Shown one piece after another: positions 2,462-49,200 of a stretch of 64,000 nucleotides of DNA (positions are counted from its first letter, which is position 1; the number at the start of each line of letters is the position of its first letter). Both the position numbers and the translations under genes were made by a program. This DNA is from a virus (taxonomy: Duplodnaviria; Caudoviricetes), in IMG/VR virus record IMGVR_UViG_3300029705_000021. One strand, 5' to 3'. Below the pieces are notes generated by a model. That model ran no database searches and was not told the DNA's origin. It saw only the letters and a list, made by a program, of their open reading frames with translations.

Positions 2462-5095
2462 ATGAGTAAATATGGCTTAAAAATAAAGAATTTTCAAGCA
2501 GGTTCTTTATTTGGATATAATAATGGAACTAGAGATAGACTTGATAGTACCGATGCAATGCTTACTAATAGTTTGTTTAGTGATTTTATTATTCAAAACG
2601 GATTAAATGTTTGGAAAGGTGAATCTACCAGAGATATTATTTGCATAGAATTTGATTATGGTACTAGAGATTATCAAGGAGAACTCGATAATTTTAACAA
2701 TATAATTAAAAGTATAAATAAAGACGAAAAAATGTCTTTAGAAGAGAAAGAAGAACGAATTGAGAAAATTAATTTTTTGATAAATAGAGCAAACGAAAAT
2801 CAATGTAGATATATCAAAAAATCGGCACATGAATTAAGAGAACTGTTTTATACCGAAGGAGTAGATATTAATTATAAAACCTACAATAAAAAAGGCGAAG
2901 TTATTAAAGAAGATTTAATTCATTATAAAATGTTATATAGAACTCCAGGTAAAGCAAAAAAAGGTTCTTGTATGTTTATTAATGAACAATTATATGATAC
3001 TGCAAGAAATTTTCTTTATATGGGAATACAGTTGTCTGAAAAAAATGCGCCAATTGTTGAGATAGGTGCGTATTCTTCTCTTATTACTTCTACTATCGTT
3101 GGAAAAATACAAATTAGATCAGAGCAAATATTAGTAGTTAATGATGTAGATTCGTTTTATAAAACCAATATCATTAGTATTGAAACTGATGAAAGTAAGC
3201 GTTGTATTTCAAAACCAATTGATGATTATGAGTTAAAGAACACATTGTTTGATGGACAAGCTTTAATTGATACTTCTATCTTTCCAGAATGGGGTGATGG
3301 TTATGTTTTACTAAGACATCATATGTGTAAGATGGCTGCTTTTCATACAAATATAGAATTGTTTATGAGAGAGCACTTTAAAGAAAATTATGATACTGCA
3401 TATATTAATGATATGTGGGGCAATCTCGTTAAGGTTTCGGATATTAAATTAATTACAACGGATAATGCAATGAAATGGCTAAAATTTGATAAATCATTTG
3501 AATATTGGTCTGATTGGGTTAGACAAAATGATTGTATGTTTGGTGTTGTAAAAACTGCGCATCAGAGTAAACTTGGAGAAGTTCAACGTATGAGTTATCA
3601 AATGATTAATGCATTAGATATGGATATCATGCCTCAAGTTACACAATGTAGTATTGATTATATAAATGCATTAAAAACAAACGATGATGTATTTTTGAAT
3701 TATCTTAGAGACAACCAAAACTTTTCTAATGATTTTGAAGTACTAATTGCATTAGTTGAACAAGATAGAGAGTTTTTACGAAGTGAGTATTTTAGACATC
3801 GTAAAGAATATATCATTAAAGCTTATGTTATGAATTTTAAAAATGGAAAGATTATTCAAAACGCAGATAATCTCGTTATTGTTGGATCTCCATATGCAAT
3901 GTTATTACATTCAGTAGGTAAAGATCCTTTAAATGATGAAACTTTTAAAACAGAAGATGGGGCAATTCAATGTTTTACTCAAAGATTTAATGATGGGGAA
4001 TATCTTGCTGAATTTAGAAGTCCATTTAATTCTAAAAATAATATGGGATATTTACATAATGTATATAGTGATAAATTACAAACGTATTTTAATTTTGGAA
4101 AACAAATTATTGCAATTAATATGATAAATACGGATTTCCAAGACAGAAATAACGGATCAGACCAGGATAGCGACAGCCTGTATGTTACTAACCAAAAAGA
4201 GATTGTTGAGTATGCAAAATTTTGCTATTTAAACTATCCAACAATTGTTAATAATATTCCAAAAGAGAAAAATTCATATGATAATACATTATTAAATTTT
4301 GCAAACATAGATAATAATTTATCTGACGCTCAAGAAGCGATTGGTACATCGAGTAATTTGGCTCAAATTGATTTAACATATACTTATAATGCAAAAACAG
4401 ATGAAGATAAAAAGAAGTATGAAAAATATGTATGTATTTTATCAGTTTTAGCACAAGTGGCAATTGATAATGCAAAGCGCAGATTTGATATTGATCTTGT
4501 TAAAGAAATTGACTTGATAAAAAAAGATATGAATATCAAAGAAAATGGGTTTCCTGCATTTTGGGGAATTGTAAAAAAAGATTTTAATAAAAGAAGAATT
4601 AATAAAAACTTGATATGCCCTATGAATTATATATTTGATATTCAAATTGATAAGTATAAAAGCAAGGAATCTACTCTTCCTATGAGTGATTTTTTTGTAA
4701 ATTATCCGATGGAAGAACATAGACGTAAATCAAGAAAGGTTGAAGAATTAATTCAAAAATACTCTCTTGATTTATATACAAAATATCAGAAACCTAAAGA
4801 TTGTGGATATATGGATGACGAAGACGAAGAAGATTCTTATTTACTATTGCGTTCAGATTTTGACGATTTAATTAATGATATAAATCAAATATATATATCT
4901 AAAAATTATTTAGGTTTAATGTCTTGGTTAATTAATCGTGCTTTTCTTATTGGGGCTGGTGCAAGAAGAAATACAAAAGAAATACAATCAACATTAAATA
5001 ATAATAAATCTATTTTATTAAAAACTTTGTATACAATAAATCCTGACGCATTGTTAAAATGTTTTGCAAAAAATATAGAAAAAGTGGACACTTAA
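2462..5095 (+). CDS. Single-subunit two-barrel DNA-dependent RNA polymerase, YonO-like
   Basis: 877 aa; LFDGQ, FRSP and NGSDQDSD metal-binding loop, AIDNAK motif; sits upstream of HU and virion genes as yonO does in SPbeta. Confidence 0.8.
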   Translation: MSKYGLKIKNFQAGSLFGYNNGTRDRLDSTDAMLTNSLFSDFIIQNGLNVWKGESTRDIICIEFDYGTRDYQGELDNFNNIIKSINKDEKMSLEEKEERIEKINFLINRANENQCRYIKKSAHELRELFYTEGVDINYKTYNKKGEVIKEDLIHYKMLYRTPGKAKKGSCMFINEQLYDTARNFLYMGIQLSEKNAPIVEIGAYSSLITSTIVGKIQIRSEQILVVNDVDSFYKTNIISIETDESKRCISKPIDDYELKNTLFDGQALIDTSIFPEWGDGYVLLRHHMCKMAAFHTNIELFMREHFKENYDTAYINDMWGNLVKVSDIKLITTDNAMKWLKFDKSFEYWSDWVRQNDCMFGVVKTAHQSKLGEVQRMSYQMINALDMDIMPQVTQCSIDYINALKTNDDVFLNYLRDNQNFSNDFEVLIALVEQDREFLRSEYFRHRKEYIIKAYVMNFKNGKIIQNADNLVIVGSPYAMLLHSVGKDPLNDETFKTEDGAIQCFTQRFNDGEYLAEFRSPFNSKNNMGYLHNVYSDKLQTYFNFGKQIIAINMINTDFQDRNNGSDQDSDSLYVTNQKEIVEYAKFCYLNYPTIVNNIPKEKNSYDNTLLNFANIDNNLSDAQEAIGTSSNLAQIDLTYTYNAKTDEDKKKYEKYVCILSVLAQVAIDNAKRRFDIDLVKEIDLIKKDMNIKENGFPAFWGIVKKDFNKRRINKNLICPMNYIFDIQIDKYKSKESTLPMSDFFVNYPMEEHRRKSRKVEELIQKYSLDLYTKYQKPKDCGYMDDEDEEDSYLLLRSDFDDLINDINQIYISKNYLGLMSWLINRAFLIGAGARRNTKEIQSTLNNNKSILLKTLYTINPDALLKCFAKNIEKVDT

Positions 5096-5309
5096 TAATT
5101 TTAAACATTTAAAAACCCCAGTAAAACTAATTAAAATTACAGATTAGCTTAACCAAGTAAATGATAGAAAAGGCGTATTGTCTGAGTAATCAAACCGCTA
5201 ATACCGATTGCGGTATAAAAATATGGGAGTTAACTAAATAAATCCTTTTCGGTGGGCGGTAAAACCGACATATATGAAAAATTTAACTAATTAATTTTAG
5301 AATTTACTA

Positions 5310-5338
5310 TTGACAAATATTGTCAAATATGATAGTAT
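5310..5338 (+). promoter_or_regulatory. SigA-type promoter with a palindrome over the -35 box
   Basis: TTGACA-17 bp-TAGTAT with TG extension; TTGACAA-ATA-TTGTCAA inverted repeat. Confidence 0.7.
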
Positions 5339-5354
5339 AAAGGAGAATAAGGAT

Positions 5355-5702
5355 ATGAGAGAATTTAGAAACACTAAAGGATGGACAGAGCATTATAATT
5401 CTTTAGAAGAACTAAGAGCTGGATGGAATTTAAAGCCAGCATCAAAGAAAAGACCAAAAGATGAAAAGGCTTTGCAGGAAGCAAGAGAAAAGTTTTTAGG
5501 AACTTGCCCTTGTTGTAAAAATACGCTTTCGTATATCTATGGTTCAAGTTATAAGACTTGCAAGAATGCAGAATGTAAAGGTTTTAAGAAAGTTGAGAAA
5601 AACGAAGACGGAACTGAAAGAGTTTGTTACATTCCATATCTTTCAAAACCACTTGATAAACATGGTAAAGAAATTGCATTGAATTTATTTGATGAAGAAT
5701 AA
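5355..5702 (+). CDS. Zinc-ribbon hypothetical protein
   Basis: ATG at 5355 after AGGAG preferred over TTG 5310 (which is the -35 box); CPCC and CKNAEC motifs. Confidence 0.65.
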   Translation: MREFRNTKGWTEHYNSLEELRAGWNLKPASKKRPKDEKALQEAREKFLGTCPCCKNTLSYIYGSSYKTCKNAECKGFKKVEKNEDGTERVCYIPYLSKPLDKHGKEIALNLFDEE

Positions 5703-5815
5703 TTTTTTTAATGAAACTAATTAATTTTACATAATATAAATTATGGTTACTCCTCTTCGTCCTGAAGAGATAACAAATAAACAAAATATTTAATGAATAA
5801 AAGGAGAATTAAAAA

Positions 5816-6094
5816 ATGAACAAAGTAGAATTAATCGCAAAAATTGCAGAGGTAAACGAAACAACAAAGAAGGCAGCTGGCGAACAGTTAGATGCAATTG
5901 TTAGTGTAATCACAGAAGCTTTAGTAGATGGTGAAGAAGTTTCACTTACTGGATTTGGAAAGTTTAGTGTAGTAGAAAGAGCTGAACGTCAGGGTGTAAA
6001 TCCTGCCACATCTGAAAAGATTACAATTGCAGCTTCTAAAGCACCAAAGTTTAAAGCAAGCTCTACACTTAAGAATCTTGTAAATGGAAAGTAA
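5816..6094 (+). CDS. hup: Histone-like DNA-binding protein HU
   Basis: MNKVELIAKIAE, GFGKF, RQGVNPAT, PKFKAS signature. Confidence 0.95.
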   Translation: MNKVELIAKIAEVNETTKKAAGEQLDAIVSVITEALVDGEEVSLTGFGKFSVVERAERQGVNPATSEKITIAASKAPKFKASSTLKNLVNGK

Positions 6095-6259
6095 TTAAAT
6101 AAATTCGTGTGAACATTAAGTTGTTGTGCTGGTTCATTGCCAGCCACACAATTTAAGATGCAAGCAAATTGGGAGTAGCTACCCAATTTATGCGAGAACT
6201 ATCCCCTCGCTGCTTGCAACTTAGATATATAGGGATAGAGAAAGTTAGGGATAGAAAAA

Positions 6260-7267
6260 ATGGAAAAGAATAACAAAAGATACGATTATGAATATGTAAA
6301 ATCTAAATTTAAAAAAAAAGACTATACTCTTGTTTCAGAAGAGTATAAAAATAAAAATGAAAAACTAGATTATATTTGTAATAAACATAAAGAATTTGGA
6401 ATACAAAAGGTTAGTTTTGCATCACTGGAATTGAATAATTGTAATTGTAAAAAATGTATAAATGAAAATGCGGTAGGAAAACGTCATAATGTTCCAAAAC
6501 TAACAATTAAAAACTATGATGAATATTTTGAAAAATATAAAAACAAATTGTTTAATGAAGTTGGAGAAGAATATTCTTTGCAAAAAATAGATGTAAAAAA
6601 TAAGAAAACAATGTTATATTTAATACATAATAAATGCAATCAACCATATCCGATTGAACAATATAAATTTTTTAAAAGAAAATATAGATGCCAAAATCCA
6701 GATTGTAAGCATCAAAGAATATCTGACCGTTGTATGAAAACAACAGAACAATTCAAAAAAGAAGTGTTCGATTTGGTTAAAGACGAATATATTATTGAAG
6801 GAGAATATGTTGGTAAAGATAACAATATTCTTTTCAGACATATTACGTGTAACTGTACATTTGAAAAAACACCGCATAATTTTTTAGCAGGTCAGAGATG
6901 TCCTCATTGTATATTGCCAACTAAAGGAGAACAAAAAATTATTGATTATTTGGACAATAATAATATTAAATATACATTTCAGAAAACATATAATGATTTA
7001 AGAGGTATCAATGGTGGGTTATTGTCATATGACATATATTTAGATGATTATAATTGTTTAATTGAATACCAAGGTCATTTTCACGATGGTACTGCGTTTA
7101 AAGAATATGATGAAAAATTTGAACGTCAACAAGAACATGATAAACGAAAACGAGAATATGCAAAATTTCATGGAATAAATTTATTAGAAATTTGGTATTG
7201 GGATTTTGATAATATTGAAAATATATTAATAGACTACTTAAATTTACATAACGAAATTGCAAGCTAA
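6260..7267 (+). CDS. Free-standing putative homing endonuclease (Zn-ribbon repeats plus Vsr/DUF559-like nuclease domain)
   Basis: Repeated C/H zinc motifs, C-terminal KGEQKI...SYDIYL...IEYQGHFH...DKRKREYA...LLEIWYWD; paralogous to 51950..52858. Confidence 0.75.
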   Translation: MEKNNKRYDYEYVKSKFKKKDYTLVSEEYKNKNEKLDYICNKHKEFGIQKVSFASLELNNCNCKKCINENAVGKRHNVPKLTIKNYDEYFEKYKNKLFNEVGEEYSLQKIDVKNKKTMLYLIHNKCNQPYPIEQYKFFKRKYRCQNPDCKHQRISDRCMKTTEQFKKEVFDLVKDEYIIEGEYVGKDNNILFRHITCNCTFEKTPHNFLAGQRCPHCILPTKGEQKIIDYLDNNNIKYTFQKTYNDLRGINGGLLSYDIYLDDYNCLIEYQGHFHDGTAFKEYDEKFERQQEHDKRKREYAKFHGINLLEIWYWDFDNIENILIDYLNLHNEIAS

Positions 7268-7317
7268 AATAAAAAAACTAAATATTATACAAGTAGGGTG
7301 TTCTACCCTACTTCTAT

Positions 7318-7390
7318 GGGAACTTAGCTCAGTAGGCAGAGCGTTTGGCTGTTAACCAAAATGTCATATGTTCGATCCCTATAGTTCCCG
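7318..7390 (+). tRNA. tRNA-Asn(GTT)
   Basis: GGGAACT/AGTTCCC acceptor, TTTGG-CTGTTAA-CCAAA anticodon arm, TTCGA T-loop; one T-stem mismatch. Confidence 0.88.
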
Positions 7391-7415
7391 TTCCTTATTC
7401 TATGGTGGAATAAGA

Positions 7416-8039
7416 ATCCTATGATGTATACTGACTCAGATAAGTATATTAGGCTCTCTTCGGAATGACTGCATCCGTATCTGAAAACAAATCAGTAGTC
7501 AATACTCATCCATCCTAGTGTGGTATGAGCTGAGATTTTGTCAGATTGACATTTTCGTATTGTCTCCGAGAGTGACGGGACATTAATTTAGAATATCGCT
7601 CAATTGTAAGTTAAAAGAATAGGTCGAATATTCTTTCCTCTCAACTGTTGGTGCATTCCTAGGGAAGTAAGACTATCTATAGAAGTAGATTAAGCCAAAC
7701 ATACTGGTCACATGGGCAATGTTTGTACGAAAGAGGTTCTGGTGTTATAGACCACCCTAAAAAATGATTGGAACGTAGCCACGTTTGAATAATAGGCTAG
7801 TGAGTAGGGATGACCTCCGAAAGCGATTAATAAAAGAACCTAACACGCCTCTCGATGATGCGTACCACGTTAGGTCATTTGAAAAGAACCCTTAAGTGGG
7901 CAACTATGCTCTTTATGAGCCGTACATAAGTACATTACTAAGCATGAATGGAACAAATTCTCTATTCTAAACAACTGGTTGTGTACAGACCAATAAGAAG
8001 TTAGTTAGTGCTTTATACTTCTTATTAATTTTGTAGGAT
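7416..8039 (+). ncRNA. Large ornate ncRNA, probably ROOL family
   Basis: 624-nt ORF-free, GC-enriched segment between tRNAs; closed by ATCCTATGA/TTGTAGGAT; long-range TTTAGAATA(7587)/TATTCTAAA(7963); many local hairpins; size and tRNA/phage context fit ROOL. Confidence 0.72.
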
Positions 8040-8108
8040 CGCCTAACGCCATCTAGTTCGCCAAAGTGCAGGATAAGAAATTAGAAAATGTTAGGCTTAA
8101 AAATATAT

Positions 8109-8183
8109 AGCGGAGTAGAGCAGTTCGGTAGCTCGTCAGCCCCATAAGCTGAAGGTCGTGGGTTCAAATCCCACCTCTCGCAA
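8109..8183 (+). tRNA. tRNA-Met(CAT), initiator-like, atypical
   Basis: D arm GAGCAGTTCGGTAGCTC, TCAGC-CCCATAA-GCTGA, GTGGG-TTCAAAT-CCCAC; 1:72 mismatch, bulged acceptor stem, C33. Confidence 0.75.
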
Positions 8184-8186
8184 TCA

Positions 8187-8290
8187 TAGATAGTTACAGC
8201 AAATTTAAATCTTAACGAAGCTCCAGTAATTGCTTTTCGCAGGTTCGACTCCTGTGTGTAAAAGAGACGGTTCTCAAAACAACTATCTAG
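8187..8290 (+). ncRNA. Stem-closed ACAGCAA element 1 with internal T-arm
   Basis: TAGATAGTT-ACAGCAA...AACTATCTA-G; internal GCAGG-TTCGACT-CCTGT. Confidence 0.5.
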
Positions 8291-8297
8291 AATTTAT

Positions 8298-8370
8298 TGA
8301 GTAGTAGCTCAGTTGGGAGAGCACTAGTTTTGGGAACTAGGGGTCGTGAGTTCGAGTCTCACTTATTCAA
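8298..8370 (+). tRNA. tRNA-Pro(TGG)
   Basis: TGAGTAG/TTATTCA acceptor, CTAGT-TTTGGGA-ACTAG, GTGAG-TTCGAGT-CTCAC. Confidence 0.88.
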
Positions 8371-8374
8371 TTAT

Positions 8375-8446
8375 GGTGTCATTAGTTTAATGGTAAAACG
8401 TCAGAATGTGGGTCTGAAGTTAAAAGTTCGATTCTTTTATGATACC
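8375..8446 (+). tRNA. tRNA-His(GTG)
   Basis: 8-bp acceptor GGTGTCAT/ATGATACC (G-1:C73), TCAGA-ATGTGGG-TCTGA, AAAAG-TTCGATT-CTTTT. Confidence 0.88.
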
Positions 8447-8471
8447 CTTGGTTGCCTAATGCATAGCTATA

Positions 8472-8532
8472 GGCGTAATTCCTACCACTATCCTCTTACT
8501 GGCGAATTGCTGGGAGTGCGCACGAATAGAGG
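8472..8532 (+). ncRNA. HDV-like (theta-type) self-cleaving ribozyme, possibly degenerate
   Basis: P1 GTAATTC/GAATTGC, P2 CCACTA/TAGAGG, P3-L3 TCC-TCTTACT-GGC, GGG junction, short P4, C-GAA J4/2 in the correct order. Confidence 0.5.
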
Positions 8533-14513: not shown

Positions 14514-14667
14514 TTAAATTATAGTTTGCTTATGATTTTTATAGTTTGAGCACATAGGTATGTGCTCAAACTTGTATATATTGTTTAATTTGAGTGCTTA
14601 GGTATGTACAGAATCGTGCATATTCCTAAGTACTCAACAGTTATTTATTATTTAAACTATAATTTAA
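14514..14667. repeat. IR-bounded cassette 1 with three 20-bp palindromic sites
   Basis: 14-bp perfect IR TTAAATTATAGTTT/AAACTATAATTTAA; sites at 14548, 14592, 14616 (reverse). Confidence 0.8.
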
Positions 14668-14679
14668 TAGTTTTGCTTA

Positions 14680-14708
14680 TTGACATATTTTTACATTTAA
14701 TATATATT
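14680..14708 (+). promoter_or_regulatory. SigA-type promoter of the recombinase
   Basis: TTGACA-17 bp-TATATT; half-site TAGTGCTTAAG immediately downstream. Confidence 0.65.
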
Positions 14709-14752
14709 ATTAGTGCTTAAGATTAACTAATATTATAAAGAGAGGTAAGAAT

Positions 14753-15796
14753 ATGAGTAAGAAGAATGAATTAATTAATATAATTTTACATAGTGCAATG
14801 AGAAGTTTTGATAAAGATGCAATTGTGGAATTAAAAAAGATACTTAGAATTTCTCTTTATGATTATTCGGTAGAAAAAATAGGGACAACAGATATTGCTA
14901 TTGGAAATTACGAAACCACTCAAGGATTATTGGAATATTTTACTGTATGTAAATTAAGCTCTGGTAGATCGCATAAAACAATTAGACAGTATATACTCGT
15001 GGCGAACCAGTTGTGCGGTTTGGTACACAAGAATTTGGGTGATATAACGAGCGAAGATGTAATTTATTTCTTAGCGAAATACCCTACTACGAAATCTCCA
15101 CATGTAAGTCAGTGTACTATGGATTCAAAGAGAAGATACTTGTCTTCTATCTTTGGTTTGTTAAAGAAACACAAAAAGATTTCAGAGAATCCGATGGATA
15201 TGGTTGAGAGTTTGAAATATCCCTATAAGGTAAAAGAACAATTTACTGATCAAGAAATACATAAATTATATGAAAGCATTAACGATTGCAAAAATGATAT
15301 TATTAAACATAGAAATAATGCCATACTTAGTTTATGTCTTGATACTGGTTGTCGTGTTTCAGAATTAACTAATATTAGTATCAGAGATTGTAATTTTCAG
15401 AGCAATGAGGTTAAAGTGCAAGGAAAAGGCAATAAGGAAAGAATTGTATTTTTCTCTAAATCAACAAAAGATAAAATTATTGACTATTTAAAACTTAGAA
15501 ATATTCAGAACTATAATACTAATATTCCATTGTTTATGGATATCTGCAATAAGAACAGACTTAAAGCTTCGGGTGTCAGAAGTATGCTTAAAAGAATTGG
15601 TTTAGCGAGTGGAGTAAACAATGTTCACCCACATAGACTGAGACGTACTTGCGCAACAAGCCTTGTTGTAAAAGGTATACCGATTGATACAGTTGCTAGA
15701 TACTTAGGTCATGCTAATTTAGATATCGTGCAGAAATACGTCTGTAATTCGAATGAAAGAATGAAAAATGAGTTACAAAGAGTTGGTATAGGTTAA
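14753..15796 (+). CDS. Tyrosine recombinase/integrase (XerC/D-like)
   Basis: TGCRVSEL (R), GKGNKER (K), HPHRLRRT (HxxR), LGH, KY catalytic set; N-terminal SAM-like domain. Confidence 0.93.
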   Translation: MSKKNELINIILHSAMRSFDKDAIVELKKILRISLYDYSVEKIGTTDIAIGNYETTQGLLEYFTVCKLSSGRSHKTIRQYILVANQLCGLVHKNLGDITSEDVIYFLAKYPTTKSPHVSQCTMDSKRRYLSSIFGLLKKHKKISENPMDMVESLKYPYKVKEQFTDQEIHKLYESINDCKNDIIKHRNNAILSLCLDTGCRVSELTNISIRDCNFQSNEVKVQGKGNKERIVFFSKSTKDKIIDYLKLRNIQNYNTNIPLFMDICNKNRLKASGVRSMLKRIGLASGVNNVHPHRLRRTCATSLVVKGIPIDTVARYLGHANLDIVQKYVCNSNERMKNELQRVGIG

Positions 15797-15821
15797 CTAA
15801 ACTAACTAATTTTTGATATAT

Positions 15822-15995
15822 TAAACTCGAATATACTTAATAATTTTTATTGCGTACATAAGTATATACATAAAAAATTGTGTACTTAAGGATGTACACA
15901 AGTATTGAGTGCTTAGGTAAACACTCTATATTGTGTGCTTAGGAATGCTGCCAAACATTTATAGTACGATATTTTATTAATTAAATTCGAGTTTA
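15822..15995. repeat. IR-bounded cassette 2 with four 20-bp palindromic sites
   Basis: 11-bp perfect IR TAAACTCGAAT/ATTCGAGTTTA; sites at 15852, 15880, 15907, 15933. Confidence 0.78.
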
Positions 15996-16010
15996 GTAAA
16001 CGAATCTGTT

Positions 16011-16043
16011 AACCAACTTCTTTTGTGTAGAGTTGGTTTTATT
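16011..16043 (+). terminator. Intrinsic terminator-like hairpin
   Basis: AACCAACT/AGTTGGTT stem followed by TTATT. Confidence 0.5.
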
Positions 16044-16084
16044 ATAAAAATCAACTAAATAAAAAAAGAAAGTGAGGTAGAGCA

Positions 16085-16735
16085 ATGTATACAATTTTAG
16101 TTAAAGATACTAATGAATTATCTATAACAGTAAAAGAACGAATTATGCAAAGAAGTAAACTTATTGATAATTTGCATTTTTTAGTTAGCCCTTTATATAA
16201 GGACGAAATTGATATGACTGGCTTTACGGTAATGATGGAATATATATTACCTATAAGTAAAAAATATCGTAGTGAAATATTAACATTATCTGAAGAGTTA
16301 TATAAAGAAAAATTAGAATATAAACTTCCTTTTGATACAAAACTTACAGAAGAAGCTGGAAGTATTGAAGTACAATTATCTTTTATTAAATTAGATTTAG
16401 ACGAAGAGGGTAATAGTGTTCAATATGTTAGAAAGACAAGCCCTGCGACTATTACAATTGTACCAATTAGTGCATGGAGTGATATTATTCCTGATGAGGT
16501 ATTAAGTCCTATTGATGCTAAAATGTTAGAGATACAAGGTCAAATTAAAGCATTAGAAGAATTATCTAATATAACTGCTACTACAAAGGCAGATAATATT
16601 GTCCTTGATGAAGGAACTCATGAATTGTATTTGACATCTAATGGAGAAGCGATTGGAAATAAAATTGATATGGATACACTTGGTGAAGCAATTGTAGAAA
16701 ATACTGAAAATGGTCTTGTTCAAATGATAATATAG
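16085..16735 (+). CDS. Baseplate-upper (BppU-like) domain protein
   Basis: Beta-rich N-terminus ending KLTEEAGSIEVQLSF, then coiled coil; GAGG RBS. Confidence 0.5.
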   Translation: MYTILVKDTNELSITVKERIMQRSKLIDNLHFLVSPLYKDEIDMTGFTVMMEYILPISKKYRSEILTLSEELYKEKLEYKLPFDTKLTEEAGSIEVQLSFIKLDLDEEGNSVQYVRKTSPATITIVPISAWSDIIPDEVLSPIDAKMLEIQGQIKALEELSNITATTKADNIVLDEGTHELYLTSNGEAIGNKIDMDTLGEAIVENTENGLVQMII

Positions 16736-16745
16736 GGAGGTAATT

Positions 16746-17582
16746 ATGTCACAAAATAGAGCGAAATTTGGTTATCTTTCTTATGATGATATGCTGCAAA
16801 AAATTACTGATGGCGTATTAGACCAACATGACATAGTATTTACTAAAGATACAAAAGAAACATATATTATTTCTCCCGATGCTGAACCTATAGCTTTAAA
16901 AAGTAAAGTTTATGTATATAATTCTATGACAGAAGCAATTAGAGAAATTAATAGAAATACTGATACTTATATTGGTCAAATTGTTAGTATTTTAGACGGA
17001 GATACATATCGAGGTTATATTGTTAATCAAAATACAAAATATAGAACTACTTCTTATACAGTAAGTCCTTTAACAGATACTTCTTCTATTGATTATAATA
17101 CATTGGGTAATAAACCAATTATAAATCTTATTGGTACTTTAGATGAACCAATAACTTTATCAGAGTTATCTAATGGTACATATTCTATTATTGGTCAATA
17201 CAAAGTTAAGGATTCTGAAGAAACAATATATCTTAATGCTTCTCCGACAGTGGTTATTATAGAAAAAGATAACAATAAAACATTTATAAAAAAAATTTCA
17301 TCGTCAGAAATTATAGATTATGTAATAACTGATGATATTGTTGAGAAAAAAGCATATGCAACAGATAAATTTCTTGAAGAATATGGATATGCTACTACTT
17401 CTTATGTTGATAATAAAATTGCAGTTCTTGATTTTATTACCAAAGATGAAGTGTCTATATATGTAGACAATTTAGTAAATGAAATACTTGATAATATATT
17501 GGATTCTAAAATTGATAAAAAGATTGACGAAAAAATTCAGCCTGTTGGGGAAGAATATGTTGTTAGTCTTTTTTCTTTATAG
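16746..17582 (+). CDS. Putative virion accessory/fibre-associated protein
   Basis: 278 aa; YIGQIVSI, DYNTLGNKPII and YATTSYVDNKI motifs typical of phage fibre proteins. Confidence 0.5.
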   Translation: MSQNRAKFGYLSYDDMLQKITDGVLDQHDIVFTKDTKETYIISPDAEPIALKSKVYVYNSMTEAIREINRNTDTYIGQIVSILDGDTYRGYIVNQNTKYRTTSYTVSPLTDTSSIDYNTLGNKPIINLIGTLDEPITLSELSNGTYSIIGQYKVKDSEETIYLNASPTVVIIEKDNNKTFIKKISSSEIIDYVITDDIVEKKAYATDKFLEEYGYATTSYVDNKIAVLDFITKDEVSIYVDNLVNEILDNILDSKIDKKIDEKIQPVGEEYVVSLFSL

Positions 17583-17656
17583 AAAATATATGATACATAG
17601 TTAAAAACACCAAATTATGGTGTTTAAAAATAAAAAAAAGAAAGGAATATATAATT

Positions 17657-18907
17657 ATGGCAAAATTAAAAGTTTTTACATTGGATAACCTTACTCTCTA
17701 TGATGGATTGATTAAAGGTTATGTTGACAAAGCTGCTGCTGCAGTTGATGCAAAGTCAATAAAGACTGTTGCAATTACAGGTAACACACTTAATTTTTAT
17801 AATGTTTCAGAACCTGTAGGTGAAACTGCTCCTGTTTATTCTATTGAACTTCCACAGACAGATTTAACAGACGTTCTTACAAGACTTTCTGCTCTTGAAG
17901 ATGGTAAGGCTGATAAGACTGAAGTTTACACAAAAGGTGAAGTTTACACAAAAGGTGAAGTTGATGCTGCTATTCAGGATGCTGAATATGATGATACTCA
18001 GATTAAGGCTGATATTAAAGCAAATGCTGACGCTATTACAGCAATTAACGCTGCTGATACAGGTATTCTTGCTCAGGCAAAGACTTATGCTGATGGCAAA
18101 GATGACGCTATCGCAGCTGCTAAGAAGGCTGGAGATGACGCTCAGGCTGACGTAGATGCTCTTGAAGCAAAGATTGGTACTGTTGAAGACGGAAAAACTG
18201 TAATGGGTATTATTGCAGACATTCAGGCTAATGCTTACGATGATACTCAGGTTAAAGCTGATATTAAGAAAAATGCTGATGATATTGCTGCTATTAATAA
18301 TGCAGACACAGGTATTTTAGCTCAGTCTAAAGGATACACAGATACAACTGTGGCACAGGCAGTAAAGACTGTTAAAGAAAGTCTTGCTTCTGCTCTTACA
18401 TATAAAGGTCAGAAGGCTACTGAAGATGAACTTCCAACAGAAGGTAATGTATGTGGTGATGTATGGAATGTAACTACAACAGATAAGGGTACTTCTGCTG
18501 AATTCGTATGGGTAGTTGATAATGCTGAAACTGGAGCAGGTCATTGGGAAGAATTAGGTACAGCTCTTGATCTTTCTGCTTATGCTGAAAAGACACAGGT
18601 TGCTACTGATATTGCTACAGCTAAGGGCGAAGCTGTTTCTGAAGCTAAAGCATACGCTGATGGATTGGCTTCGAATTATGACGCTGCAGGTGCTGCTAGT
18701 GATGCACTTACAGAAGCTAAAGCATACACAGATACAGAAGTTGCAAAGGCAAATGATGCAGTAACTGCTCTTACAAATGGTCAGGTTAAGACAAATACTG
18801 ATGCTATCGCTAAGAATGCACAGGATATCGCTGGTTTACAGTCAACTCTTGGCGAAGGTGTTGAAGCTATTACAGAAGCTGAAATTAACGCTTTATTTAA
18901 TGCTTAA
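17657..18907 (+). CDS. Fibre-like coiled-coil virion protein
   Basis: Ala/Asp-rich AKxYAD/YDDTQ repeats, YKG...GDVWNV...WEELG domain, strongly biased codon usage, tandem EVYTKG. Confidence 0.65.
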   Translation: MAKLKVFTLDNLTLYDGLIKGYVDKAAAAVDAKSIKTVAITGNTLNFYNVSEPVGETAPVYSIELPQTDLTDVLTRLSALEDGKADKTEVYTKGEVYTKGEVDAAIQDAEYDDTQIKADIKANADAITAINAADTGILAQAKTYADGKDDAIAAAKKAGDDAQADVDALEAKIGTVEDGKTVMGIIADIQANAYDDTQVKADIKKNADDIAAINNADTGILAQSKGYTDTTVAQAVKTVKESLASALTYKGQKATEDELPTEGNVCGDVWNVTTTDKGTSAEFVWVVDNAETGAGHWEELGTALDLSAYAEKTQVATDIATAKGEAVSEAKAYADGLASNYDAAGAASDALTEAKAYTDTEVAKANDAVTALTNGQVKTNTDAIAKNAQDIAGLQSTLGEGVEAITEAEINALFNA

Positions 18908-18933
18908 TTAAAATAAAATTGAATACATGATTG

Positions 18934-18970
18934 CAAAGAGCCTTGTGAAATATCAAGGCTCTTTGTATTA
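18934..18970 (+). terminator. Intrinsic terminator
   Basis: CAAAGAGCCTTG/CAAGGCTCTTTG 12-bp stem after the fibre gene. Confidence 0.7.
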
Positions 18971-18981
18971 ATATTGGTTGA

Positions 18982-19136
18982 TAAATAAATGTTTAGTGAT
19001 CTTATGTATTTACCTAAGCACTCTTAAAACAGGTATTTTTTTATATTTATATTTTTGATTATGTGCTTACCTAAGCCCACAATCCTTTTAAAATACAATA
19101 AAATTTTAATTTATAAATTCACTAAACATTTATTTA
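18982..19136. repeat. IR-bounded cassette 3 with two 20-bp palindromic sites
   Basis: 18-bp perfect IR TAAATAAATGTTTAGTGA/TCACTAAACATTTATTTA; reverse-oriented sites at 19004 and 19061. Confidence 0.82.
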
Positions 19137-19151
19137 ACTAATTAAATTTAT

Positions 19152-19224
19152 GCCTCGATGGCTCAATTGGCAGAGCAGCTGATTTGTAATCAGCAGGTTA
19201 TCGGTTCAAGTCCGATTCGAGGCT
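19152..19224 (+). tRNA. tRNA-Thr(TGT)
   Basis: GCCTCGA/TCGAGGC acceptor, GCTGA-TTTGTAA-TCAGC, ATCGG-TTCAAGT-CCGAT. Confidence 0.95.
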
Positions 19225-19300: not shown

Positions 19301-20605
19301 ATGGCAACTGTAAAAAAAATGAGTACGGATGTCAAAATGACTCCTGCTCAAATGAAAAAAGAAATAGAAAAATTAAAAGAAGAAAATGAAAAGCTTAGAA
19401 ATAGTTCTCGTTGTCTTATATGTGACACATTAAAAAAAAAGGACGATTTTTATGTTAGTACAGACCCAATGAATAAAGCAGGGCATACTCAAATATGTAA
19501 AACTTGTGCTCGTAAATTGGCATTGAGAACAGATAAAAATGGCAATGAACATGAATGTAATATGGATTCAATTTGTTTAAGCCTTAAATACATGAATAAA
19601 CCATTTTTAAATGATTTATGGGATTCTAGTATACAAGAATCAGAAAATTTAGTAGCAGGAAAAGTAAAACATAGTCCAGCAACCGCTTATTTTAAGAATG
19701 TCGCAATGGGACAATATAATGGTCTTACCTATTTTGACAGTGACATGTTCAAAGAAAAAGTTGTTTATGAAGATGAAAAAACACCTCAAATGATTGTCGA
19801 AGAACATGCAGGTCAAGATACTTATGATGATTTTATTAAGAATAAAAAAGATGTTATTAGATTATTAAGTTATGACCCATTTGAACAAGAAGCTGTAAGT
19901 GATCAACCATTTTTATATTCTCAGTTAATAGGATTACTTGATGCTGGTGGAGATGAGAATGATGATATGATGAGAAATGCTTCTTGTATTTCAATTGTAA
20001 GAAGTTTCTTGCAATCTTCTAAGATAGATAATGCCATAGCAAATCTTATGGCAGATATTAAAAATATAGATAAAAATTCTGCTACTATTAAATCACTTCA
20101 AGATAGCAAATCAAAAATTACAAGTACTATTACGAATTTGGCAGCAGAAAGTTGTATTTCATTGAAAAATAATAAAAATGCTAAGAAAGGTGAAAATACT
20201 TGGACTGGTAAAATTAAAAAGATTAAAGATTTAAATCTTAGAGATGGACAAGTTAATGGATTTGATATAGCAACTTGCAAGGGTATGCAACAAGTACAGG
20301 AAATCAGTGATGCTTCTATTATGAAGCAGTTGGCACTTGATGAATCAGATTGGTCAGATATGGTTGCAGAAATGAGAAAAGATAATCAAGCTTTAAGAAA
20401 AGAAAGAGATTCTTATAAAGAAATTAATAGAATTCTTTTACAAGAGAATTTAGATCTTAAGGATTATTTTGAAGATAATAATATAAATCCAGATATTGAA
20501 TATAGAAATTTAAAAGAATTGTACTCTATATTTGCGAGTGACGATGAAATAGAAACAACTGTTGAGGAGGTAGATGAAGATGAATCAGATACTACTTCCG
20601 TATAA
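19301..20605 (+). CDS. Putative terminase small subunit / packaging-associated Zn-finger protein
   Basis: CxxC...CxxC N-terminus; overlaps the terminase large subunit start. Confidence 0.55.
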   Translation: MATVKKMSTDVKMTPAQMKKEIEKLKEENEKLRNSSRCLICDTLKKKDDFYVSTDPMNKAGHTQICKTCARKLALRTDKNGNEHECNMDSICLSLKYMNKPFLNDLWDSSIQESENLVAGKVKHSPATAYFKNVAMGQYNGLTYFDSDMFKEKVVYEDEKTPQMIVEEHAGQDTYDDFIKNKKDVIRLLSYDPFEQEAVSDQPFLYSQLIGLLDAGGDENDDMMRNASCISIVRSFLQSSKIDNAIANLMADIKNIDKNSATIKSLQDSKSKITSTITNLAAESCISLKNNKNAKKGENTWTGKIKKIKDLNLRDGQVNGFDIATCKGMQQVQEISDASIMKQLALDESDWSDMVAEMRKDNQALRKERDSYKEINRILLQENLDLKDYFEDNNINPDIEYRNLKELYSIFASDDEIETTVEEVDEDESDTTSV

Positions 20606-22896
20606 TAATTATCAATTAGATTATGATAAAGATTTCTATCAAGACTATGGTATTTTTGTAAAACCAATTAATTATCCATTATCCAGTAGAAAAATAGAAG
20701 CTTTATTGGAGATTGCAAATATGCAAAAGTATTTTCAATGTAACCCTGTTAAAATGATAGACATTATGTTCAACATAGAACTTCTTGATAGCCAAGCACT
20801 TGCAGTACAAAAAACATGGATTTGTCCTAATGCACTTTTGGTGTGTACTCGTGGTTGGGGTAAATCTACTGTTATTGATTTATCTCTCATGGCAAAAGGA
20901 ATGTGCTTCGCAAATTATTGGAGCTATATAGCAAGTGGTTCTGGTTCTCAGGCTGAACAAACTTTTACTACGTTAGAAAGACTTGCTAATGATAATATTG
21001 ATACATTTTCAGGGTCTACTGGAATTGTGTTCAAAAACGAAGTAGAAATTAAAAACGCTGCAGGTGATGGATTTAGTCATAGCAGTAATGGATTTAACTA
21101 TTCTTTATATAATGGTTCAATGACACAAACATTAAATTCAAATATAGACGCTAAAAGAGGTGAACGATTGCCTCACTAATTAGAAATAATTAGAGAAAAA
21201 TAAGTGCGAAAGAAAACTGGAAGACTGAAATGTTAATCAGAATGGAAGGCTAAATGCAAAAGTTTAGTCACATGCAGAGCATAGAGTTTGAAACTAATTA
21301 ATATTAGAATATAATAACTCCACGAGTTCGCACCATCTAAACGTAAAGTCGTAGATGAAAAGGTATGCCGAGCTTATAGGAATAAAACTATAAGAACTAT
21401 AAGATAAAAAACTTGTAGGATAACAATTGTATCGTGGTAGCGTAGTTTTTGATGAAAGTGGTTTCTTATCAGAAGAAATGATGAACGTATATAGTGCGTT
21501 TGCTGTAGTTAATAGAGATTTGAAAACTGGTAAAGATGCAAGTGGAAAATCAATTGATCCAATTAGACAAAGATGTTTCCCACCTGACATGCCATATCAG
21601 AAAATATATATCAGTTCTGCTTCTAGTACTGATACAAAATTCTTTGCATTATATAAAGATTTTGCAAAGAAACAAATTATGGGAGACCCAGATTATTGTG
21701 TTTTACATATTGATTGCGAGTTGGCATTTAAACCAACAATGCATGGAGAATTAATTACTCCTCTTCTCTCTCGTTCTACTGTTCAATCTGAAATGAGAAC
21801 AAATCCTGAAAAGGCAAGACGAGAATATTATTGTCAATTTACTACTGAAGCAGGTGAAAATGCAATTATTAAAAGAGGTGTTATTACTAGAAATGAAGAA
21901 ATTAGAAAACCACTTCTTTATAATGATACTGGTGATAAGAAATTTGTTATATGTTATGACCCAGCTAGAAGCCGAGACAATAGTGTTATTTTGGTTGGTG
22001 AAATATATGATCACGAAGAAGTTGATGGTTCTATTGATAAAAGAATGAGACTTGTAAACTGTATTAACTTGATTGACGTTGGTAAAAAGATTAAATCTCC
22101 TATGCAAACACCTGATCAGATTGAATATCTTAAAAAAGTTATTCTTGATTATAATGGTGGTGCTGATGCTTATGAAAACATTGTTGGAATATATATTGAT
22201 GCTGGTTCTGGTGGTGGAGGCGTTAACATTGCAGACTATTTAATGCAAGATTGGGTAGATAAAGCAGGAATTAAACATAGAGGTTTAATTGACAAAGAAT
22301 ATTCTGCTGAATATGTTAAAAAGTTTCCTAATGCAGTTGACAAAGTTAGGTTAATATCTCCTTCAGGCTATAAATCAGAAATGTACGAAGCAATGATAGA
22401 ATTAATGAATCAAGATAAAATTAGCTTTACAGCGCAATATGACAGAAAAGGTATCTTAACTGTATTTGATGTTGATGAAGAAAAGTTGGCAAAAGAGAAA
22501 GAAAAGATTATAAATAAATTAAAGAAACAGAAACTTTCTAATGAAGAGTTTAGTAATAAACTTGACGAAGAGTTAAAGCAAGTTCAATCTGTAAAAACTA
22601 AAACAATTAAACTTGATTGGCAAGATGAAATTGCTTTAGTTAATATGGACGCATTAAAAGAAGAGCTTGTCAATATGGTTCGTAAAAAGAGAGAATCTGG
22701 AAAAGACTCTTTCGAATTGACTGCAGAAAAAGCAAATAAAATGCATGATGATAGAGCTTATACTTGTTGTTTAGCTTCATATGCTCTTATGTGTGAAAGA
22801 AGAAAGAATATTACTTCTAGAAAGAGAAAACCTACAACAACCAACCTAGCAGATCTCTTACCAATCAAAACACCAAAGAGATCTTCTTACTTTTAA
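20574..22896 (+). CDS. terL: Terminase large subunit, spliced join(20574..21161,21430..22896), 684 aa
   Basis: Walker A RGWGKS in exon 1; splice restores KRG-YRGSVVFDES (Walker B); nuclease motifs YDPARSRD, IDAGSGGG, HDDR. Confidence 0.9.
21162..21429 (+). ncRNA. ORF-less group I intron in terL
   Basis: P1 GAGGT/GCCTC with U-G at 5' site; P7 GCATA/TATGC; terminal G; P10 ACGAT/ATCGT; excision restores frame. Confidence 0.9.
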
Positions 22897-23030
22897 ATTT
22901 TAAACTAAATAAAAATATATTTTCTCAATATAACATATATCATAAATAATATAGTTTGTCAAGATAAAATTTTAAAAAATAAATATAAATAAAAAATACT
23001 AAAAAAAAATAAATAAAGGGAGGTGTACCG

Positions 23031-24599
23031 ATGGGAAGACCAAAGGGCAGTAAAAATAAACCAAAGGTGACAGAAAGTGCACCTTCTACAACAGTAACAA
23101 TGGGAACAAATATACCTGCAACAAAAACTAAACGTACTGTTGCGGAAATGAAGGAATGGTATGAAAAGAATACTGAAAATACACAAGAAGCATTTAAGAA
23201 AATTAGGGATGTAACAAAAACTGGTCGCCAGACAACTTTAAATTCTTATAGTAAAGATAATGTAATTTCATATTTGCAAAACATTTCTTCTAATGAGAAC
23301 AACTTAAGAAATTTGTCTCGTTATTTGTTTTATAGATCACAGGTGTATTTTAGATTAGTTATGTATAATGCCACAATGTTTGATTTAAATGCACGTACTG
23401 TAATCCCACAATATGATCCAATAAAAACAAATAATCCAAATAAAATATTAAAATCATATTATGAAACTTTACAATGGTTAGATAGAATGAATTTACAACA
23501 CGAATTTTTATCAGTTTTAGTTAATAATTTTATAGAGGATGTTTTCTATGGTTGTTGTTGGATTGATGAAACTGGAATATTTATATTGCAGTTACCACCA
23601 GAGTATTGTAAAATTAACGGAAAATTTTTCACAGGAGATTTTCATTACGAAGTGGACATGTCATATTATAAGAAATATGAATATTTAATTGAATATTTAG
23701 GCGAACCTTTCTCTTCTATGTATTCGGCTTACGGTGGAGACAACGCAAAAAGATGGCAACCAATGCCAGATGAATACACCTTATGTACGAAGTATAGATT
23801 AGAATCTTGGGAAACAGTATGTCCACCTTATTCTGGCTTATTTCTTGATTTGATCGGACTTCTCAATTTATCTGATGTTCAGGCAGTTGCAGATGAACAG
23901 CAGATTTATAAGCTTATTACTGCTACTATTCCATTGTTAGATAATTCGGATGTGCCAGATGATTGGGCGGTAGATGTTAATACAGCATTAGAATATTATA
24001 GAAAGTTGGACGCTGCTTTGCCTCCATATATAGGTAGTATCATTACTCCTATTCCATTGGATACAATATCGTTTTCTGATGATCAAGCTACTGATACAAC
24101 TAAAGTTCAAAAAGCCACAAAAGAAGTTTTAAATACATCTGGTGGAGCACAGATTTTGAACTCTAGTACAATTTCAGGAGCAGAAGCTTTTAAAGCTGCT
24201 ACTCGTGCAGATACGGAATTAGCAATTTCTAGTTTGTTGGGACAAATTAGTGGTTGGACAAATCGTATGTTATCTTATTTAGTATCTGATCCTGCAAAAG
24301 TTAAGTTTTTCGAAGTATCTTCTTATACTAAAGATGCTTTCAAAGAATCTTTGCAAAAAGATTTGAATTATGGATTTGTTAGTGCTTTAGCAATTAATTC
24401 GTTAAACGGATTTAGTGAATTAGATACATTGGCATTGAACTATTTGGAAAGAGATGTTTTACAACTTCATGACAAGTTTGTTCCTTATAAAACAGCATCT
24501 ACACAATCTGGAGATGGTGAAGGTGGAGCACCAGAGAAATCTGACACGGAAATTTCGGATGAGGGTAGTGAAACAAAGGATCAGGAGAAAAATCAGTAA
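23031..24599 (+). CDS. Portal protein
   Basis: 522 aa directly after terminase; acidic GGAPEKSD tail typical of portals. Confidence 0.75.
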   Translation: MGRPKGSKNKPKVTESAPSTTVTMGTNIPATKTKRTVAEMKEWYEKNTENTQEAFKKIRDVTKTGRQTTLNSYSKDNVISYLQNISSNENNLRNLSRYLFYRSQVYFRLVMYNATMFDLNARTVIPQYDPIKTNNPNKILKSYYETLQWLDRMNLQHEFLSVLVNNFIEDVFYGCCWIDETGIFILQLPPEYCKINGKFFTGDFHYEVDMSYYKKYEYLIEYLGEPFSSMYSAYGGDNAKRWQPMPDEYTLCTKYRLESWETVCPPYSGLFLDLIGLLNLSDVQAVADEQQIYKLITATIPLLDNSDVPDDWAVDVNTALEYYRKLDAALPPYIGSIITPIPLDTISFSDDQATDTTKVQKATKEVLNTSGGAQILNSSTISGAEAFKAATRADTELAISSLLGQISGWTNRMLSYLVSDPAKVKFFEVSSYTKDAFKESLQKDLNYGFVSALAINSLNGFSELDTLALNYLERDVLQLHDKFVPYKTASTQSGDGEGGAPEKSDTEISDEGSETKDQEKNQ

Positions 24600-46200: not shown

Positions 46201-49200
46201 TTAGCTGAAAGGTGAACGAGTTATAATTTAGTGCGTATAAGAATATCAATACTTAGTCAGATTTGGTATAGTTGACGTTGTATATGTAAAGATACATATA
46301 GTGCATAAAAATATACAGATCATATGGAATATACGGAGTACCGAAGAAGTATGCTAAGGAGTGTGCGTAAAAGTACATACAGAAGTATATAATAAATAAT
46401 ATATGAAAGAATAAGTATATAATGTAAACGACAACAAATGCTTGACTAGAAAAATATAAGGAAACGTAAGAAACGTAGAGAAAAAGCAAGAAACAATAAT
46501 AAAGCAAAAATAGTTTGTGAAGATAATTGTTTATGTATCAAATGTGATTAAGTGTAGGCATCGAAAAATGTTAATACACAATTACAAGAAGTATAAAATA
46601 TATTATATAAACATATGAAATATGGAAATAAAATGTGTATTGACTAAAATCGGTGTTGCTATCCTTATGCGCATTAGAGAATAACAAGGCTTGCTGTAGC
46701 TAAACAGCAGAGAATGGAGTAAGTGGTAATGCACTACTCTCCTATTATTAATTATAGGACGTGGAGCGTCTAAAAGGAATAAATTACTAAGCTTATGCAG
46801 GGATGTATAAGTGGCAAATGCGAAAGTATGAGGTAAAGTAAAAAGTTTTATTTTAAGAGACGTAATGCGCAAGAGACAGCTCTAGAACAGAGCTACCTTC
46901 ACAGAGTGTAAGGGCTGTGTGGATAGATAATGTTACTCTTCTATTCATAAAAGTGCACTCGAAACTGACATCAGGCATAGATGTAATTAATAGTGTTGAG
47001 ATACATAACACTTTATGCTATTAGGGCACACAAGCCAGTGTGTAAATGTATCATGGCTAAAAGTGATTAAAAATAAAAATACATAAATAAATATAAAATA
47101 AATAAATATAAAATAAATATATAAAATAAATATATAAATAAATATATATTTATAACCTAGAAGAGAATAAGATAAAATAATTAACTTAAAAAGTTTAGAT
47201 ATAATAGATAATAAATATTTAAATATAGATATAAGTTAATCCTGTATCTTAGAAAAACAATACTACTCTTCTACTGGTTTTAAATATATAAAGTTCGTTA
47301 TAACAATGTAAGTTATATAAATTATAAAGTGTTGTTTTTCTAAGGTATAGGATTAAAATGTTATATATTATATTTGAAAATTATCAAATTTATTAAAATT
47401 TATTATATATAGAAAAAATAAAAGATTAAAAATTAATTATTTTATCAAACGAAAGTTTGATATCAAATATAATAAAAAATGGTTTTACATCTACATCATC
47501 TCAAACAGAAGCAGACACTGCGGCTACTGTAATGAACACAAAGGTGACGTATGAAAATGATATTGCTAGAAAACAAAAAGCCGCTACTATGGCTCGTGAA
47601 GCAGAGATGAATAGGTTAAATACTCAAAGTACAATACAGTTATCTCAAGCACAAAAAGAAGAAGCGGCTGCAAGTGCGGCTGCAAAAGCTGCAAATGAAG
47701 TTCAAACTAATTCAGAAGCAGAACAATTAATGGTCAAAGCTGGGCTTATAACCGCAGAAGAAATGGAGACGGGTGCAACTGTCCAAGCATCTTTAGCTGA
47801 TATACAGCTTGCTATAAATTCTAAAGCAGTGACTTTGGAAGAAGCTAAACAAATAGCTATTACCCTAGGACTTGATGCTGCTCAATTAAAAGCTGCAGGA
47901 TCAGCAACATTATTAAGCAAAGCATTAAATTTTATAAAAGCTCATCCAATTATTGTAGGCATTACTGCCATAATTGCTGTTGTTACTATTGCTCGAAAAG
48001 CTTATGATACATGGGGTAATAGTGCTGAAAAAACAACTAAGGCAGTTAAAGATTTAATGTCTGAATATGAACATGCTATCAATACAGCAAATGCCAATGC
48101 GAATAGAGTCGAAGAATTAGCGGAAGATTATGAAAAACTTTCTGAAGGTGTAAATGCATTAGGAGAAAATGTATCTTTAACTAATGAAGAATATGATAAA
48201 TATAATTCAATAGTGAATGAAATTGCAGAAATGTTCCCTACAATGGTTAAAGGATATACAGATGAGGGTAATGCGATTCTAAAACTTAAAGGAAATGTTG
48301 ATACTCTAAGAAATGCTTATACAGAAGCTCAAGAAGAGGCTTATAATTTACTTATCGCAACAGGTCAAGATGGTAATGGAAATGATATCTTGAAAGATGC
48401 TAACAATGTCATTAATGAAAAATACGTGGATGATTATACACAGGGAAATAAATCAGTTCTAATGCATATTGACGAAATGCAAGATATATTATTAGACGAT
48501 AATTATAAAGAAATTTTAATGAAAAAAACGGGATTAAATACTTCATTTGATCCTAGTGATGATGATGCAGAGTTTAGAAAATGGTTTACTTACTTAACTG
48601 GAATTTCTACAGACGGAAGAGCTTATATTGAAAATATTTCCAAAGAACAAGTTGAAGAAATTTTAAAGCAATTAAAAATACAAAAACAAACTTTAAATGC
48701 AGAGGTTGACTCAGTTGTTGATAATGTAGAAACTTTAGCCAACGCATATCTTATGAATAATGAAGATTATTCAAAATTAGATGATGAGCAAGTTAAAAAT
48801 GTGGCATCAATACTAGTAAATAATCTTAATACAGACATTGTTTCCGAGTTTGGAACAAATAGAGAAAATGTTGGAAAATATGTTAATAATATAATTGAAG
48901 ATTTGAATAATGATAAAGTAAAAACCGCCATTAATAAATTATTTGAACCAAATCTAGATGATATGCCTGTAAACGAAGCATCTAATATTATAACTCAATA
49001 TATTGAAGAAATAGTAAAGGCAACAGGTAGGACAGAAGTTGAACTCTTAGAATTATTTGGATTGGAAGATTATGTTAAATTCTCAAATAATTATAATGAA
49101 GTTTTAAGAAATGCGGCAAATCAAGCGCAAGGATATAATTATAATGATGCATATGCAAAAATGGAAGAATTTGCATTTAAATATTCTATTAATACTCAAG

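Follow-up and report, generated by a model that had tools for sequence, protein, structure and literature searches.

Can a single phage recombinase serve several DNA switches that lie side by side and keep them apart? The question is raised by positions 14514-19136 of a 64-kb stretch of DNA from a gut phage (Caudoviricetes, record IMGVR_UViG_3300029705_000021; hereafter the window). Three short non-coding cassettes, each closed by an inverted repeat (IR), lie there around one tyrosine recombinase gene, and a first-pass annotation had proposed that they are three independent micro-invertons worked by that enzyme. Comparison with other assemblies showed that cassettes 2 and 3 invert precisely and independently.

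Structure of the cassettes

The cassettes occupy positions 14514-14667, 15822-15995 and 18982-19136 (154, 174 and 155 bp) and are closed by perfect IRs of 14, 11 and 18 bp. All six ends carry TAAA-N6-TTTA sites, and within each cassette the two 6-bp spacers are reverse complements; these features, reported in the first-pass annotation, proved exact when re-checked. Cassette 1 (family A) has sites at 14515-14528 and 14653-14666, the spacer TTATAG and one imperfect inner arm (TTTG). Cassette 2 (family B) begins 26 bp past the recombinase stop codon, with sites at 15822-15835 and 15982-15995 and the spacer CTCGAA. Cassette 3 (family E) has sites at 18982-18995 and 19123-19136 and the spacer TAAATG. 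None of the three is assigned to a strand, and all six crossover sites are intergenic.

Matched TAAA-N6-TTTA pairs are found nowhere else in the window, and 100 local dinucleotide shuffles, the chance-frequency check that had been called for, gave none. In the whole 161,663-bp genome the same three are the only pairs whose arms together have no more than one mismatch; one further, weaker pair (265 bp) has two mismatches. Perfect IRs of at least 11 bp at this spacing are common by themselves (the genome has 25); what carries the evidence is the arm-spacer-arm grammar that the cassettes share.

Inversion in independent assemblies

Inversion was assessed by comparing independent assemblies that encode identical proteins, and the evidence is at the level of assemblies. 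Both orientations, which the first-pass annotation had suggested looking for, are seen for cassettes 2 and 3 with exact ends. L004 and L006 show cassette 2 in its reference orientation; L007 and L008 contain its exact reverse complement, without a further mismatch. The crossover of this cassette can be placed within the 11-bp repeat spanning the spacer. Cassette 3 has the reference orientation in L047 and is exactly inverted in L031, L051 and L052. For both cassettes the flanks are unchanged and the assemblies are otherwise identical. Thus an inverted-site-bounded segment occurs in both orientations with precise ends, beside a recombinase with an intact R-K-H-R-H-Y set.

Cassette 1 has a single orientation in the window and in six loci of the same phage; its orthologue flips exactly between the relatives L034 and L035. 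Between L042 and L043 one cassette is flipped and its neighbours are unchanged, and in L054 the 145 available bases of one cassette are the reverse complement of those in L053. In sample 3300018494 cassettes 1 and 2 have the reference orientation and cassette 3 is inverted, in the window all three have the reference orientation, and the states are therefore not locked together. Hybrid junctions joining both orientations are present in L009 (cassette 2) and in L049 and L050 (cassette 3), as expected if both orientations coexist in one sample. A site coincides exactly with the start or end of several homologue contigs (L011, L018, L037, L039, L041, L044). Three control IRs in the contigs compared for inversion are never inverted.

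A cassette family in one recombinase clade

The recombinase (347 aa; 14753-15796, plus strand) has a XerA-like fold with an extra helical N-terminus. Its catalytic residues R201, K225, H294, R297, H320 and Y329 are intact and are invariant in 72 sequences. The expected co-occurrence of cassettes with homologous recombinases is borne out: all 12 variants examined (54-100% identity) carry cassettes, and none of the 14 loci outside the clade does, the 149 kb around these more distant recombinases containing no matched TAAA-N6-TTTA pair. Eleven of the variants were placed in a tree (L019 was dropped) and form one clade with support 100/100. The 12 variants with flanks have 36 distinct cassettes, and a held-out locus, L053, has four more at the expected places.

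Each locus has one to five cassettes, 143-192 bp in length. The lengths cluster near 143, 152, 161, 172, 183 and 192 bp, a ~10-bp periodicity (R 0.78, or 0.66 with each length counted once). The cassettes form families that follow an order: the upstream one stops 74-97 bp short of the start codon, another usually starts 24-36 bp after the stop codon, and up to three more follow, then a tRNA gene, usually Thr. Families A-E keep their order and structure down to 54% enzyme identity. The number of cassettes varies even beside an identical recombinase (L013 versus L014), and in the P0006 lineage (L034, L036, L037) the retrieved DNA contains the upstream cassette alone. In a few comparisons, the linkers of loci without a given cassette contained no lone site in its place.

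A private spacer for each cassette, first noticed in the window, is kept throughout the clade. The 24 distinct spacers include no palindrome; no within-locus pair is identical (0/56), and 54/56 differ at two or more positions. The paralogous cassettes may have arisen by tandem duplication followed by re-keying. In L010 (9360-11021) a NUMOD/HNH-like gene lies between the recombinase gene and cassette B, which is preceded by a second copy of the 3' end of the recombinase gene. A search of viral contigs for related loci found no close relative, a motif scan of them gave three matches, all unrelated, and GenBank phages held nothing above ~36% identity.

Internal palindromes

Each cassette contains two to four copies of a 24-bp palindrome, TTGWGTRCW-T-N4-A-WGYACWCAA, giving 105 units in the 36 cassettes. 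Cassette 1 has three (14545-14638; starts 14545, 14589 and 14613), cassette 2 four (15849-15955; starts 15849, 15877, 15904 and 15930) and cassette 3 two (starts 19001 and 19058), all without strand. The last palindrome of cassette 2 runs into a conserved one-way element resembling ATGCCGCCAAACAT, which is kept in 12 of 13 family B copies. The eight best palindrome matches in the genome are all within the three cassettes, homologue loci have matches in cassettes only, and every palindrome cluster with complete flanks lies inside a matched site pair.

The outermost palindrome lies ~25, 35, 46 or 58 bp from the crossover centre, a phasing to the crossover sites of ~11 bp (R 0.68). The central 6-mer occurs in either direction among orthologues, and the palindromes have no G-U strand bias (85 versus 81). 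These two properties favour reading the palindrome as a site on double-stranded DNA for a dimeric protein rather than as an RNA motif. Some orthologous centres are exact reverse complements between phages (TAGGTA/TACCTA and TAAGTA/TACTTA; alignments A3-A5), which are micro-inversions of hairpin loops.

A related system with a single key

A related recombinase, P0133 (~43% identity; in the cluster of P0112, 174 members), is accompanied by seven sites, all TAAA-CTCTGG. In its loci (L055-L058, ~2800-8500), segments of 0.35-1.1 kb have been moved and flipped among slots across four genomes, ending up on either side of the recombinase gene. Of the seven sites, the first falls within a tail-region open reading frame (ORF), which thereby gains three C-termini in forms of 320, 188 and 183 aa. 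Judged by its sites and segments, the P0133 system is a Rin-like shufflon (PMC6109161). In the tree P0133 falls outside the keyed clade and is not resolved as its sister; its sharing of the TAAA arm links this enzyme group to that arm. The pair of systems fits a simple rule, with a shared key leading to shuffling among slots and separate keys to flipping in place. The keyed cassettes themselves do not belong to the shufflon class (Rci, Rin, Min), given the 0/56 identical spacer pairs and six intergenic sites.

Genomic context

A sigmaA-type promoter match for the recombinase (TTGACA-17-TATATT, 11/12 matches; 14680-14708, plus strand) lies just outside cassette 1, and a similar TTGACA is present in homologues. 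A hairpin followed by a T-run lies 3' of cassette 2 (16011-16043, plus strand), a possible terminator read by eye and not reported by the terminator scan; the scan did report a terminator-like hairpin 5' of cassette 3 (18932-18967, plus strand). Between these are three passenger genes (216, 278 and 416 aa; 16085-18907, plus strand), missing between the cassettes in most relatives. They had been annotated as a fibre block, a label that is a lead only: Atlas feature scores are ~0.9, and TM-scores to named families are below 0.5.

Downstream of the array are tRNA-Thr(TGT) (19152-19224, plus strand), also 3' of the array in most relatives, and a packaging block (19301-24599, plus strand) with a YonG-like gene, pieces of the terminase large subunit and the portal, PF27269 being among the basis for this assignment. 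The genome has SPbeta-like genes, and in relatives YonJ-like and HU genes lie upstream. The terminase large subunit seems split into 201 and 489 aa (window 20574-22896), with a single ORF of 586-684 aa in relatives; an intron is possible. An 877-aa ORF was considered as a YonO-type polymerase, but the assignment is unsupported, with no DxDGD motif and no PDB match; for the term "late operon" this leaves SPbeta synteny only (PMC5467207). The array as a packaging start is also unsupported; in SPbeta, pac is located between yonR and yonP and not near yonG.

A copy of the motif ACTAATTAA[AT]TTTA abuts cassette 3 (19137-19150, plus strand). The genome has 29 copies of this motif (at most one mismatch), mostly intergenic and following gene direction; those in the window are at 965, 2217, 5126, 5286, 5716, 19137, 21293, 28400, 32532, 35755 and 51639. 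It often lies beside sigmaA-type promoters, is also present in related phages, and is a candidate SPBRE-like operator or phage promoter. Elsewhere in the window, an AT-rich intergenic region has 29-bp arms that are 90% complementary (47236-47356), not of the TAAA-N6-TTTA type, with several nested IRs around it (47093-47479), and a tRNA cluster contains a match to the Rfam abiF RNA just over the gathering score (7839-7875).

A tubulin/FtsZ-family gene (PF00091; G000:C1 154004-155062) and the finding of no large serine recombinase in the genome suggest that the phage is a plasmid-like (TubZ-type) prophage.

Proposed mechanism and output

The adjacent recombinase would bind the TAAA/TTTA arms, pair the two inverted sites of one cassette and exchange strands across the 6-bp spacer. 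Since exchange needs spacer identity, each cassette would flip only in place, and the distinct keys would protect the recombinase gene and its neighbours from deletion by the enzyme. Tyrosine-recombinase chemistry and the co-occurrence in the clade make it very likely that the adjacent recombinase does the inversion and that spacer identity confines it. A loop of 130-180 bp would need help, which the phased palindromes could give by binding a protein that bends or wraps it; from the phasing, they probably organise the short loop through such a putative protein.

The orientation of a cassette could then tune transcription, either at a stage after initiation or by where the bound protein sits; the chances for and against this are about even. 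There are precedents: the C. difficile flagellar switch is 154 bp long and promoterless, and fimS affects fimE mRNA (PMC5386303), so such segments can act after initiation. These precedents, the promoter match of the recombinase outside the cassettes and the finding of no conserved promoter or terminator within them favour transcriptional tuning. The target would be the recombinase itself for cassettes 1 and 2 and the tRNA-Thr/YonG/terminase block for the last cassette, and n cassettes would give 2^n expression states, a form of bet-hedging. Taken as a whole, a multi-bit invertible switch array that tunes how the recombinase and the tRNA/packaging block downstream are transcribed falls just short of an even chance. 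A bolder version is tentative and rather unlikely: an n-bit DNA register in which as many as five cargo-free switches with orthogonal keys, arranged serially in the phage late region, are randomised by one recombinase and read combinatorially, spreading recombinase and packaging expression or induction timing across a clonal population.

Several points weigh against a regulatory switch array of this kind. None of the cassette families has a conserved orientation-dependent sigmaA promoter or intrinsic terminator, and the cassettes have no conserved C/G skew. Both orientations are about equally frequent and none looks strongly selected. The evidence for inversion comes from assemblies rather than reads, and the periodicity and phasing tests use related sequences, which overstates their significance. 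Finally, the genome encodes two other, distant, intact-looking tyrosine recombinases (G000:C1 11613-12617 and 156226-157263, minus strand), neither adjoined by keyed cassettes. Of the proposal of three micro-invertons under one enzyme, the flipping stands, directly for cassettes 2 and 3 and through an orthologue in a relative for cassette 1; the role of the enzyme is only inferred, because of these two further recombinases.

Alternative explanations

The cassettes might really invert without any output, serving as platforms that bind a phage or host protein as a sink or scaffold, with flipping as a by-product. The abundance of palindromes and their near confinement to the cassettes agree with this, as do the reversible central 6-mers, the lack of G-U bias and the seemingly unselected orientations. 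It is unlikely, if far from negligible, and it leaves unexplained the conserved matched spacer pairs, the intact arms and the phasing to the crossover sites.

Another explanation, to which a smaller chance is given, is a selfish or vestigial module in which a shufflon recombinase has lost its cargo and empty cassettes multiply by tandem duplication and re-keying. A related shufflon does exist (P0133), and the paralogous cassettes, one to five in number even beside an identical recombinase, are in keeping with it. Nevertheless, no empty single site was found where a cassette is missing, and so there is no sign of excision or insertion; a non-autonomous mobile element was discarded for a similar reason, no empty target site having been found in the few comparisons available. 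The constancy of families A-E down to 54% enzyme identity and the placement of every fully flanked palindrome cluster inside a matched pair also speak against a decaying module.

It is improbable that a reaction between genomes is primary, the keyed sites being points of cassette exchange or dimer resolution for a plasmid-like prophage and inversion secondary. Single sites would suffice for such a reaction, no exchange breakpoint was found at a site, and the other tyrosine recombinases could resolve dimers, although the genes between cassettes do vary (the HNH/NUMOD gene, the fibre-like block, small ORFs) and the tubulin/FtsZ-family gene without a large serine recombinase suggests a plasmid prophage.

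The alternative named in the first-pass annotation, attC-like folded single strands or structured RNAs, is very improbable. The single strands do fold well (z -1.8 to -7.9), pairing between palindrome arms somewhat exceeds that expected of independent halves (586 versus 521) and one family B hairpin is conserved, but the attC cores RYYYAAC/GTTRRRY are absent from the element ends, the cassettes have no Rfam match, G-U strand bias is lacking and the observed products are inversions. The recombinase scores 56 bits with the IntI model TIGR02249 (cut-off 265), which together with the missing attC cores rules out an integron. A library fold-back or assembly artefact is hardly credible: hybrid contigs such as L009 resemble fold-back chimeras, but full two-junction inversions occur in at least seven contigs from separate assemblies, and comparable IRs in the same contigs never invert.

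Relation to known systems and significance

Mpi of Bacteroides is a serine recombinase with dispersed sites and with promoters inside its invertible regions. One enzyme for several small switches is already known from Mpi, which acts on at least 13 invertible regions, and from RecV (PMC5903667). C. difficile RecV (Cdi1-6, flagellar, cwpV; PMC5903667, PMC5386303) resembles the phage system as a single tyrosine recombinase on which several short non-coding invertible segments depend. The RecV switches, however, are scattered over the chromosome, and apart from Cdi2/Cdi5 their IRs have been described as unrelated; the phage cassettes are clustered around the enzyme, share arms, differ by spacer only, vary in number and have a repeated internal palindrome.

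The Rin shufflon of Bifidobacterium prophages (PMC6109161) likewise has a phage XerD-like tyrosine invertase beside several crossover sites. Shufflons (Rin, P0133) share one crossover sequence and swap coding C-termini, whereas each keyed pair has its own key, no coding cargo and no change of slot. fimS is a single switch with a promoter and with internal accessory-protein sites, and its recombinases FimB/FimE lack a core-binding domain; the phage recombinase scores far below the cut-off with FimB/FimE invertase models. Like the phage cassettes, E. coli fimS is a short non-coding invertible element right after a recombinase gene, and it affects that mRNA (PMC5386303). SPbeta MrpR/SPBRE (PMC10516654) shares the tyrosine-recombinase fold, an SPbeta-like phage and a repeated DNA element, but MrpR has lost its catalytic residues and binds genome-wide sites. 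The phage enzyme keeps all six residues, which rules out a MrpR-type repressor, and its palindrome is confined to cassettes.

A further likeness is synthetic. In engineered heterospecific lox arrays (Brainbow type), as here, sites with common arms and mutually incompatible spacers are served by one enzyme. A literature search that covered few subscription papers found neither a natural clustered counterpart of these arrays nor any account of a clustered array of variable length in which cargo-free cassettes share their arms, have private spacers and contain phased sites.

Viral invertons from metagenomes are barely characterised (PMC13501310), and phage inversion systems described so far mostly swap the coding ends of tail fibres. 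The system here is conserved, phage-borne and made up of non-coding switches with separate keys, and there is evidence that they flip in nature. Together with the related single-key shufflon, the keyed array allows the influence of spacer identity on the outcome of recombination to be compared in natural systems. With 24 spacers in natural use and segments down to 143 bp that it may be able to invert, the compact recombinase could provide a toolkit for DNA memory and barcoding, and serve as a model of loop closure by tyrosine recombinases at very short lengths. If the states of the cassettes are in truth read combinatorially, the system would be categorically new.

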